56,130 nt of DNA, from NCBI GenBank assembly GCA_045656865.1, contig JAZOSB010000032.1, forward strand, positions 1 to 56,130, given 5' to 3'. This DNA is from Clostridia bacterium (GTDB lineage Bacteria > Bacillota > Clostridia > UMGS1883). The position numbers were made by a program, and so were the translations under genes. Shown here piece by piece: positions 1-41,857 of the stretch. Below the pieces are notes generated by a model, which had not been told where the DNA came from, searched no databases, and worked only from the letters and a program-made list of their open reading frames with translations. How positions within the stretch are numbered: the first letter of the stretch is position 1; each line of letters opens with the position of its first letter.

Positions 1-130
1 CCTGCGGTGCGGAGATAATCACTTTGTTGTGCCATGTGCGTTTTCCGAGCGTGGCGAGGAAATTCTCGCACGGCATAAAATCAAACATTTTTTACTTTAT
101 AGGAATGTAAATTCCTATAAAGTAAAAAAG
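1..130. repeat. Structured dispersed repeat (MITE/REP-like), copy 1, truncated by the window edge
   Basis: 121/130 nt identical to 41693-41822; ends in a perfect 19-bp inverted repeat (88-106/111-129). Confidence 0.9.
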
Positions 131-25169: not shown

Positions 25170-25559
25170 ATGTCCGAGAAGCAATCTGAGGATTTTCAGA
25201 AAAAGGTTTCCCACTTGATTGTGAGAAACCAAAATATTTTAGATATCCTGACAAAATGTCAGAATTCCTGCGGAAAAATATGCCGAAGCACGGTTAAAAC
25301 GGCTACGGGGTGCGGCTGTCTTAAAATTGTGGGAGAAAAAAATCTGTCAGTATTTTCTGACGAAGATTTTGCTGGGAAAGCAAATTCGGGTACAGAGGGA
25401 AAGCTCTGCCCCGAATGTAAAGGTATCATTGAAAATGAAATCGGCGAAATGCTGTTTTATATTGCAGGATTGTGCAATGCATTGGGTCTGAGTATAAAAG
25501 ACATTATGAAAAAAGAAATTAAAAATGTAGAGGTATTAGGAAAGTACAGTCTTAGATAA
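25170..25559 (+). CDS. Conserved clostridial Cys-rich protein, possibly MazG-like (all-alpha NTP-PPase)
   Basis: GGAGG RBS; CGC..LCPEC..IENEIGEMLFYIAGLCNALG resembles the MazG EEIGDxLF helix. Confidence 0.6.
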   Translation: MSEKQSEDFQKKVSHLIVRNQNILDILTKCQNSCGKICRSTVKTATGCGCLKIVGEKNLSVFSDEDFAGKANSGTEGKLCPECKGIIENEIGEMLFYIAGLCNALGLSIKDIMKKEIKNVEVLGKYSLR

Positions 25560-25563
25560 ACTA

Positions 25564-25591
25564 AAAACGCTATGCAACTGCATAGCGTTTT
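25564..25591. terminator. Bidirectional terminator
   Basis: AAAACGCTATGCA-AC-TGCATAGCGTTTT between convergent genes. Confidence 0.8.
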
Positions 25592-40180: not shown

Positions 40181-41194
40181 TTAATTTTGAAATCCGTTGG
40201 GGTTTTTGCTCTGCCAGTTCCATGCATCGGCACACATTTCCTCAATACCTCTCTCTGCTTCCCAGTCAAGCTCCTCTTTCGCCTTGGAAGCATCAGCATA
40301 GCAGATTGCAACATCACCCGCTCTTGGGGGAACAATCTCATAGGGAAGCTCTTTTCCTGAGGCCTCAGAAAAAGCCTTTACAATTTCAAGCACGCTATAA
40401 CCCTGACCTGTACCGAGATTATAGATATGTACACCGGGTACATTGCTTCTCTTCTCCACAGCCTTGAGATGGCCGAGAGCAAGGTCAACAACGTGGATAT
40501 AGTCACGGACACCTGTACCATCCTTTGTGGGATAGCAGTCACCGAACACATTTATTTTCGGAAGTCTACCTACTGCAACCTGTGCAACATAGGGAAGCAG
40601 GTTGTTGGGAATACCCTTGGGGTCTTCTCCTATATTTCCGCTCTTGTGTGCACCGATAGGATTAAAGTAACGAAGAAGCACCACGCTGAAACGGTTATCG
40701 GAAACGTATACATCACTTAACACTCTTTCAAGCATCAGCTTGGTAGATCCATAGGGATTTGTGGTTGAAAGGGGAAAATCCTCCTTTATCGGAACTGTTT
40801 TTGGACTGCCGTAAACAGTTGCGGAAGAAGAAAATACAATGTTAAACACATTATGTTCTTTCATAACCTTAACAAGGTTAAATGTGCCTGTCATATTATT
40901 ATTGTAATATTCAAGGGGCTTCTCCACGGACTCGCCAACTGCCTTAAGACCGGCAAAGTGGATTACCGCCTCTACTTCATTCTCGTCAAATACCTTACTA
41001 AGACCCTCATAATCGAGAATGTCGCATTTATAAAACGGGAACTGCTTTCCCGTAATTTTCTTTACCTCATCAAGAGATTTTTCACAGGAGTTTGAAAGGT
41101 TGTCAACAACAACAATTTCGTGACCTGCATTAAGAAGCTCCACACAAGTGTGGCTTCCGATATATCCGGCACCGCCAGTAACAAGAATTTTCAT
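40181..41194 (-). CDS. galE: UDP-glucose 4-epimerase
   Basis: [37 protein letters not shown]. Confidence 0.97.
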
Positions 41195-41490
41195 ATATAT
41201 ATATGCCTCCAAGCTATATATTATATCTACTATATTTTATACTAATGCAAAAGCTATGTCAAGCCATTCGTATTTACGATTTTTGTCTTTTTATCAATAT
41301 ATTTTACACAATAAGTCATCTTTACATTTTTATGTATTTTTCAGGTATTCTCTTTTCTTTTAAAATACCTCAGGCTTCGACATTTTATTCGGTGATAGAA
41401 CTTTTTTGTTATTTTTCAAATTATTTATGTAAACCTATTTTCTCCCATAATTCCGTTGGTTTGAATTTTCCCAAGTTTCAAAAAAATTAT

Positions 41491-41580
41491 TGTTGAAAAC
41501 TGTTAAAACTGTTAATAACTCTTGTTAATAACATAAAATTCGGGGTTTAAACTGTTGATAACTTCAATTGTTGTGAAAAT
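41491..41580. promoter_or_regulatory. Cluster of co-oriented DnaA-box-like 9-mers
   Basis: TGTTGAAAA (41491), TGTTAAAAC (41501), TGTTAATAA (41510, 41523), TGTTGATAA (41553) versus TGTGGATAA; AT-rich context. Confidence 0.5.
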
Positions 41581-41666
41581 TCCTCGTCTTTTTTATGTAA
41601 ACCCAAGTTTACATAAAAAAATAATAATAAACTAATTATTGAAACCTATATTTTTACAAATTACGA

Positions 41667-41822
41667 CACAGCAAAGTGACTCCGCCACTGCATCTGCGGT
41701 GCGGAGATATTCACTTTGTTGTGCCATGTGCGTTTTCCGAGCAAGGCGAGGAAATTCTCGCACGGCATAAAATCAAATATTTTTTACTGTATAGGAATTC
41801 AAATTCCTATACAGTAAAAAAG
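41667..41822. repeat. Structured dispersed repeat (MITE/REP-like), copy 2, apparently full length
   Basis: ~93% identical to 1-130; three hairpins including CACAGCAAAGTGA/TCACTTTGTTGTG and a perfect 19-bp terminal stem. Confidence 0.9.
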
Positions 41823-41857
41823 CACGCAACCCTATATAATCCGGATTACGCGCTTTT
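41816..41857 (-). terminator. Terminator of the paaK-ior-ACT operon
   Basis: Minus strand AAAAGCGCGTAATCC..GGTTGCGTGCTTTTTT; its G-U pairs form only on the minus strand. Confidence 0.7.

Follow-up and report, generated by a model that had tools for sequence, protein, structure and literature searches.

Small repeats that carry no gene are common in bacteria, but most lack a known target rule and a known enzyme. IS200/IS605 insertion sequences and the PATEs, gene-less derivatives moved by the Y1 HUH transposase TnpA, have no terminal inverted repeats, carry hairpins at their ends, insert in a single orientation and cause no target duplication. The hairpins of IS200/IS605 lie some 10-19 nt inside the ends, the targets of IS608 and of the IS200/IS605 group are chosen by pairing with an internal guide, and IS1541 is said to insert beside terminators. 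REP, BIME and REPIN sequences are dispersed extragenic hairpins, associated with RAYT. In the consulted part of the literature, group IIC introns are reported to lie downstream of terminator motifs, that is, an inverted repeat followed by T's (PMC1702495). The small interspersed repeats SPRITE, BOX and RUP of Streptococcus pneumoniae are AT-rich, structured, shorter than 200 bp and, as far as the consulted sections of their description go, served by no known enzyme (PMC3049150). According to the same sections, SPRITE has A/T-run termini and an 18-bp duplex, is enriched at the 3' ends of genes and had no empty sites available for comparison, while one of the BOX elements is combined with T-box riboswitches in a composite structure (PMC3049150).

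The element described here is like these pneumococcal repeats in kind, being a structured, AT-rich Firmicute sequence of less than 200 bp, but it differs from SPRITE (by description only, and from those sections) in that SPRITE resembles a terminator whereas the element docks beside a terminator of the host and has three hairpins. It measures about 155 nt (range about 150-180 nt) and contains no ORF. A search of the main texts of the literature found no description of the family, which seems to be a new one; in keeping with the novelty presumed in the sequence-only reading, no Rfam family matched the element in the window and 15 loci, either at the gathering threshold or down to E <= 1. Phage and plasmid collections gave no match to it (blastn, distant mode), and viral contigs gave no match to the pattern of its second hairpin. 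The public sequencing runs that matched included no RNA run, and the DNA runs among them matched only small shares (0.08 or less).

The window, the whole stretch of 56,130 nucleotides that was analysed, is contig C32 of the source genome (G000), a MAG of 1.37 Mb in 54 contigs which is 88% complete. The sequence-only reading had described two copies of the repeat in the window, and this pair is real: their similarity is far beyond chance (E = 1e-51), positions 1-130 differ from 41693-41822 at exactly the nine positions claimed (1, 18, 51, 52, 86, 97, 107, 108 and 120), and two of the differences do compensate each other within the terminal stem of 19 bp (T97-A120 versus G41789-C41812). The inventory itself has been revised, as copy 1 is cut by the contig start, the full unit runs from 41669 to 41822 and a third copy lies on contig C25. 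The genome thus holds three copies, located at T-box/pheS, at ACT/galE and at potA.

Copy 1 (1-130, + strand; 138.6 bits with a covariance model (CM) of the family, cut at the 5' end) represents the 3' 130 nt of the element and comprises the 3' arm of the first hairpin, HP1 (1-30), the second hairpin, HP2 (31-74), an A-rich linker (75-87) and the third hairpin, HP3, with its A-run (88-129). It is truncated by the contig start, and the missing 5' part is found on contig C40, just upstream of pheS; since the first 92 nt of C32 are identical to the last 92 nt of C40, the two contigs join inside the repeat and copy 1 is whole. On its right lie, on the minus strand, the terminator hairpin of a T-box leader (131-156; terminator-like site 156-131), whose U-tract is formed by the opposite strand of the A-run at 124-129, and the T-box leader (142-367; Rfam RF00230, 104.8 bits), which regulates pheS on C40. 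The order on the minus strand is therefore T-box leader, terminator, element, about 40 nt and the start of pheS. The divergent T-box promoter is located at 402-373 (minus strand), and a perfect sigma-70-type promoter (TTGACA, 17 nt, TATAAT, with TG; 495-523) drives a tRNA gene at 558-637.

Copy 2 (41669-41822, + strand; 181 bits with the covariance model) is complete by its fold and consists of HP1 (41668-41722), HP2 (41723-41766), the linker (41767-41779) and HP3 (41780-41821); four relatives (G024, G062, G012 and G002) lack this segment at the corresponding site. It docks at the terminator of an ACT-domain gene (PF19571; 41871-42311, minus strand), the hairpin of which (41822-41853, minus strand) is present at the empty sites of the relatives and has as its U-tract the complement of the A-run at 41816-41821; this hairpin, which is rich in G.T pairs and has a long loop, was read from the sequence, the terminator consensus scan giving no call there. 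The A-runs of both copies thus double, as had been proposed, as U-tracts for terminators of the minus strand. Further downstream on that strand, the next gene is a galE-like epimerase (40181-41212), 456 nt from the element. The spacer upstream of galE (460 nt; window 41400-41660) is very AT-rich, contains a 22-nt palindrome at about 41590-41611 and is conserved among relatives whether they carry the element or not.

The copy on C25 is without HP3 and lies just upstream of a potA-like ABC ATPase gene. The hairpin beside it gave the first impression of a variant HP3, and comparison of the filled with the empty site identified it as the host's own terminator. As at the T-box, the element sits here between a known leader RNA and a gene, an Rfam ldcC/SpF59 RNA motif (43.2 bits; gathering 37.2) being located about 350 nt upstream of the copy (C25:56535-56593; L004:1090-1148). 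The T-box/pheS and potA copies may both be bystanders carried in 5' leaders. The same region holds a member of another dispersed repeat of about 135 nt (L004:842-980, with an inverted partner near 1304-1384), which is present in about 7 copies, about 75% identical, in the source genome (further places C25:64362, C25:100253, C40:5439, C41:13662, C49:10589 and C17:8130) and has no Rfam match; a query containing it gave 15-26 matches in each of five relatives.

HP1 has the outer stem AACAAAGTGA/TCACTTTGTT with a GC stem inside (+ strand), HP2 has a GCC/GGC outer stem, a 2-nt bulge, the stem GTGCG/CGCAC and a variable inner stem, and HP3, which follows the A-rich linker, is made up of a T-run, a 13-bp stem and the A-run. 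Against shuffled sequences, the + strand folds with a z-score of -10.3 and the - strand with one of -8.7. Conservation of the structure through compensatory changes, first suspected from the single pair in the window, is borne out in two alignments. Among 14 hand-picked copies, 94% of the cells pair and 18 of the 55 base pairs change on both sides; among 81 distinct model-aligned rows, 95.2% of the cells pair and 50 of the 55 pairs change on both sides, a level reached by 0 of 500 shuffles, although the support from these 81 rows is flattered because they were fitted to the covariance model. Controls with the register slid pair in 41-56% of the cells, and the HP3 helix including its run is 98.6% paired. 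The claim that G-T wobbles work on the + strand only is borne out no more than weakly: there are 157 G.T cells and 61 A.C cells in an alignment which was itself fitted to the + strand, and the contrast shrinks to 41 versus 30 when counted by position. A K-turn or tandem G.A in HP2 was considered and rejected, as plain Watson-Crick pairs stand there in other subfamilies, and so was a short minus-strand peptide through HP2, which is not conserved across copies.

The ends of the element (5' GAACAAAG and 3' ...CAGTAAAAAA) form no inverted repeat. The 5' boundary is sharp and conserved, with GAACAAAG in most copies, and the number of A's to the left of it varies from 0 to 5. The lack of terminal inverted repeats and of a fixed-length target duplication sets the element apart from a classical DDE MITE. 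The same lack of inverted ends, together with end hairpins, a single orientation and the absence of target duplication, is shared with IS200/IS605 and PATEs, from which it differs in that its two end hairpins are unlike each other and start at the junction itself.

The preference for terminator U-tracts that had been proposed from two copies is real and strong. A hairpin stands within 10 nt of the right end in 51 of the 58 HP3-bearing copies, and in 45 of the 58 it also has a T-rich tail, while the corresponding values are 14.4% and 3.3% at random genome positions and 8 of 75 and 6 of 75 at the left flank. In 54 of 67 cases the gene to the right is a minus-strand gene, the 3' end of which faces the element. 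The arrangement is constant, consisting of a minus-strand gene, a GC-rich terminator hairpin of the host, a T-run and the element in a single orientation. This is also the position and orientation in which group IIC introns dock (just after the terminator stem-loop, sense; compared with the consulted part of their description), but the element is only about 155 nt long, has no ribozyme domains (V/VI) and no RT ORF, and the Rfam group II models gave no match at E <= 1.

Pairs of filled and empty sites show that the empty sites already hold the hairpin and the run, that the run has the same length at filled and empty sites, and that the element inserts directly 5' of a (T)A6-7 run (e.g. CACA^AAAAAAG, GCAA^TAAAAAAA and CAAA^TAAAAAA). 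No clear target duplication was found at these pairs, with at most a possible 3-4-nt A-rich repeat at potA; the position of the junctions is uncertain by a few A's, one pair (L152) fits no simple scheme and another (L010) is ambiguous. In G078, the genome with the most copies, the bodies of the copies are near-identical and the bases past the first four to six A's differ from copy to copy, so the boundary lies within the run. As the pre-existing run and the terminator stay intact, the site is a safe haven for the insertion. The T-run in the 5' arm of HP3 stays complementary to the junction A-run, which suggests base-pair-guided docking. Of the features by which PATEs are recognised, strand-specific insertion at a short target without duplication is thus present in the element, whereas ends in common with a resident autonomous IS200/IS605 were not found among the loci compared.

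The element is mobile and its copies are non-orthologous. All three sites of the source genome have empty counterparts in relatives, which answers the call of the sequence-only reading for a comparison of filled and empty sites. At the pheS locus the element was found in 0 of 29 loci of relatives, including the closest ones (PheS 96-98% identical), and the T-box runs straight into pheS in all 27 loci that reach the T-box. A copy does occupy this place in G027, a genome further removed (90%). For ACT/galE, 4 of 4 relatives have an empty site, and the same holds for potA (4 of 4). Conversely, sites that are filled in G012, G033 and G061 are vacant in the source genome; one of them lies in the window near 25,560, where a short A-run followed by a hairpin (25557-25590, + strand) forms an empty docking site whose orthologue in G061 is filled. 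In two relatives (G013 and G031), the pheS leaders (L056 and L060) contain inserts of about 200 nt, unrelated to the element, in the interval from the T-box terminator to pheS. This interval seems to serve generally as a landing pad.

By the covariance model, the family is present in 41 of the 87 genomes of the order and in 12 of 18 genera. The element is 90-95% conserved between species, and the flanking genes differ in every species examined (pheS, potA, galE, symporters, radical SAM genes and others). The number of copies per genome ranges from 1 to about 40, with 1-8 in the genus of the window. The highest number is in G078, with at least 34 covariance-model matches, 69 matches to the pattern of the palindrome arm and 42 BLAST matches; many of its copies are 97-99% identical, which points to a recent burst. 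Many copies stand at contig ends because they break assemblies, and the '133-nt' matches at contig ends of G078, which had raised the idea of a longer insertion sequence, are ordinary copies cut by assembly. For one G078 copy, a search for the orthologous site in relatives found a single flank.

HP2 is common to other types of element. Its core pattern occurs at at least 125 loci in a collection of species-representative genomes, and the matches listed come from gut Clostridia-type MAGs (e.g. Oscillospiraceae, Ructibacterium and Congzhengia) and one Syntrophomonadaceae genome. In 'type 2' elements (L204-L328, from many MAGs; e.g. L217 and L211), HP2 is combined with different flanking hairpins, and tandem arrays occur. 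In 45 of 55 cases the distance from the end of such an element to the start codon of an opposite-strand gene is exactly 4 nt, and the element supplies the GGAG of that gene; an open frame begins at the start codon in 49 of 49 testable cases. At the other end of the element is a long GGAGG...CCTCC hairpin.

This abutment of type 2 elements on start codons, together with the strong covariation, the high conservation between species and the position of many copies upstream of a gene (in 36 of 74 the left neighbour is on the minus strand with its start towards the element), would suit a family of small-RNA genes or cis-regulatory leaders, that is, paralogous functional RNAs and not mobile DNA. The genes downstream are unrelated to one another, however, the left neighbour is co-directional in the other 38 of the 74 with many copies between convergent genes, sites are empty in sister species, near-identical copies have burst in G078, no promoter is conserved, and the terminator beside each copy is host sequence. 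The repeated ncRNA gene that the sequence-only reading had offered as one of its options is unlikely because the copies are non-orthologous and the flanking terminator is host sequence already in place at empty sites, and we regard the functional-RNA explanation as a whole as highly improbable. The element is instead very probably a selfish, gene-less DNA repeat with three hairpins which spreads by copy and paste and docks at terminators.

Truncated forms bear on how the copying might proceed. Variants which are 5'-truncated or internally deleted keep the terminator-side end (L113, L329-L335, L029 and L340), HP3-less variants have the A-rich linker joined straight to the host terminator (C25, L068, L141, L142 and L163), and an otherwise unrelated family of about 94 nt, which docks at terminators too and forms tandem stacks, has only its last 25 nt or so (the 3' arm of HP3 and the A-run) in common with the element. 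The 3'-intact truncations and the shared end of the 94-nt family fit 3'-anchored copying better, and all these forms would be expected of a SINE-like retroposon for which an RNA of the + strand (HP1-HP2-HP3-A-run) serves as the template of a reverse transcriptase (RT), the primer being a T-run or the U-tail of a terminated transcript on the A-rich 3' end. The varying number of A's at the left of the element and the weak G.U bias on the + strand point the same way. RTs occur in 34 of the 87 genomes and in 7 of the 9 genomes with at least eight matches to the HP3 3'-arm pattern, a co-occurrence that is suggestive only because the genomes are related, hence non-independent samples, and incomplete. 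The explanation nevertheless appears unlikely, as target duplication is not seen, no RT locus carries the tail of the element, two genomes with copies (G017 and G087) have no RT match, and the short forms could also arise by loss of the HP3 palindrome through slippage. The RTs of the high-copy genomes are moreover small and accompanied by Ricin/LRR or AAA genes, in the manner of diversity-generating (DGR) or defence RTs. At the start of contig C31 of the source genome (C31:48-1530), a 304-aa RT precedes a 178-aa ORF; no element lies nearby, and the two have the look of a defence-type RT pair. The broader proposal, a bacterial superfamily of SINE-like retroposons in which small structured RNAs are copied with priming by the terminator T-run or U-tail, and to which the sister families with the same 3' tail or HP2 core, including the one docking 4 nt upstream of start codons, would belong, seems distinctly unlikely.

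The selfish repeat would be moved by an enzyme supplied in trans, and the search for this enzyme covered the window, the source genome and its relatives. As the sequence-only reading had stated, the window contains no transposase, and only housekeeping genes are encoded in it. The attribution to RAYT made there is not supported. The source genome does have a RAYT-like Y1 gene (245 aa; C25:107456-108193), but it is bracketed by a 34-nt inverted repeat of its own (region C25:107340-108220, L203), which is unrelated to HP1-3 and which BLAST finds only at the gene itself. From REP, BIME and REPIN the element therefore differs in that the RAYT-like gene has its own, different hairpins and in being much longer and three-part. 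Homologues of this gene in G078 and G087 are bracketed by double hairpins of about 70 nt with a GGGGAC motif. No copy of the element adjoins Y1 or RT genes, and no covariance-model match was found beside 11 Y1 or RT loci, 6 of them Y1.

Presence of Y1 also tracks the element poorly over the 87 genomes. Y1_Tnp is found in 56 of them, in an IS200-like form (about 160-175 aa) and a RAYT-like form (about 250 aa), and four genomes with the element (G012, G002, G033 and G081; MAGs 76-92% complete) have no Y1 match; neither Y1_Tnp nor RVT_1 co-occurs convincingly with the element among the 87 genomes. Nine IS200-like loci were compared, and the ends that could be read, in four of them, are all unlike HP3 and HP1. 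Four IS200-like copies (L194, L196, L197 and L200) each lie directly after a different, unrelated host hairpin and T-run (4 of 4 inspected), which shows that Y1 elements in these genomes do dock at terminators. Identity of the element with the omega-RNA of TnpB/IscB or the bridge RNA of IS110 was rejected, since among five high-copy genomes TnpB (PF07282) is present in none and IS110 (PF01548) in one.

The failure to find a partner enzyme would favour a spread without any, in which a growing strand, halted at a terminator hairpin, takes the A-run of another copy as its template and later returns. Donor and target are both rich in hairpins, and the junctions lie in homopolymer runs with no duplication, all of which would agree with such switching, but the sharp and conserved 5' boundary and the bursts to about 40 near-identical copies in one species with none in its sisters are left unexplained by it, so we consider it very unlikely.

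A non-autonomous mobile repeat docking at terminator U-tracts, in line with the non-autonomous dispersed element originally proposed, is thus well supported and highly probable. Its target would be chosen by pairing of the internal run of the element with the T/A-run beside the terminator hairpin, on single-stranded nucleic acid. As to the mover, a transposase of the Y1/HUH kind, acting on single-strand DNA and its hairpins, is our first choice, tentatively and at somewhat less than even probability, by analogy with IS200/IS605 and on account of the one orientation, the adjacency of hairpins, the absence of duplication and the internal run complementary to the junction. Against this route stand the failure to find a partner enzyme and the ends, which resemble neither the local IS200 ends nor the hairpins flanking the RAYT-like genes; should the active 'top' strand be the minus one, the excess of G.T on the + strand would also run opposite to expectation. 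A target-primed route by reverse transcriptase has a low probability, and the remainder falls to some other route.

In practice, the repeats matter in three respects. They break MAG assemblies, the window itself starting inside one, they sit within riboswitch-type leaders such as that of T-box/pheS, and they could be mistaken for small-RNA genes. The target rule of the element is unusually sharp for a gene-less bacterial repeat, being the last bases of the U-tract of an intrinsic terminator, in one orientation and with the terminator left intact. As the HP2 core is common to sister families which dock elsewhere, one of them just before start codons, where it supplies the ribosome-binding site, these elements may together be a modular toolkit that lands on the punctuation marks of genes in gut Clostridia.
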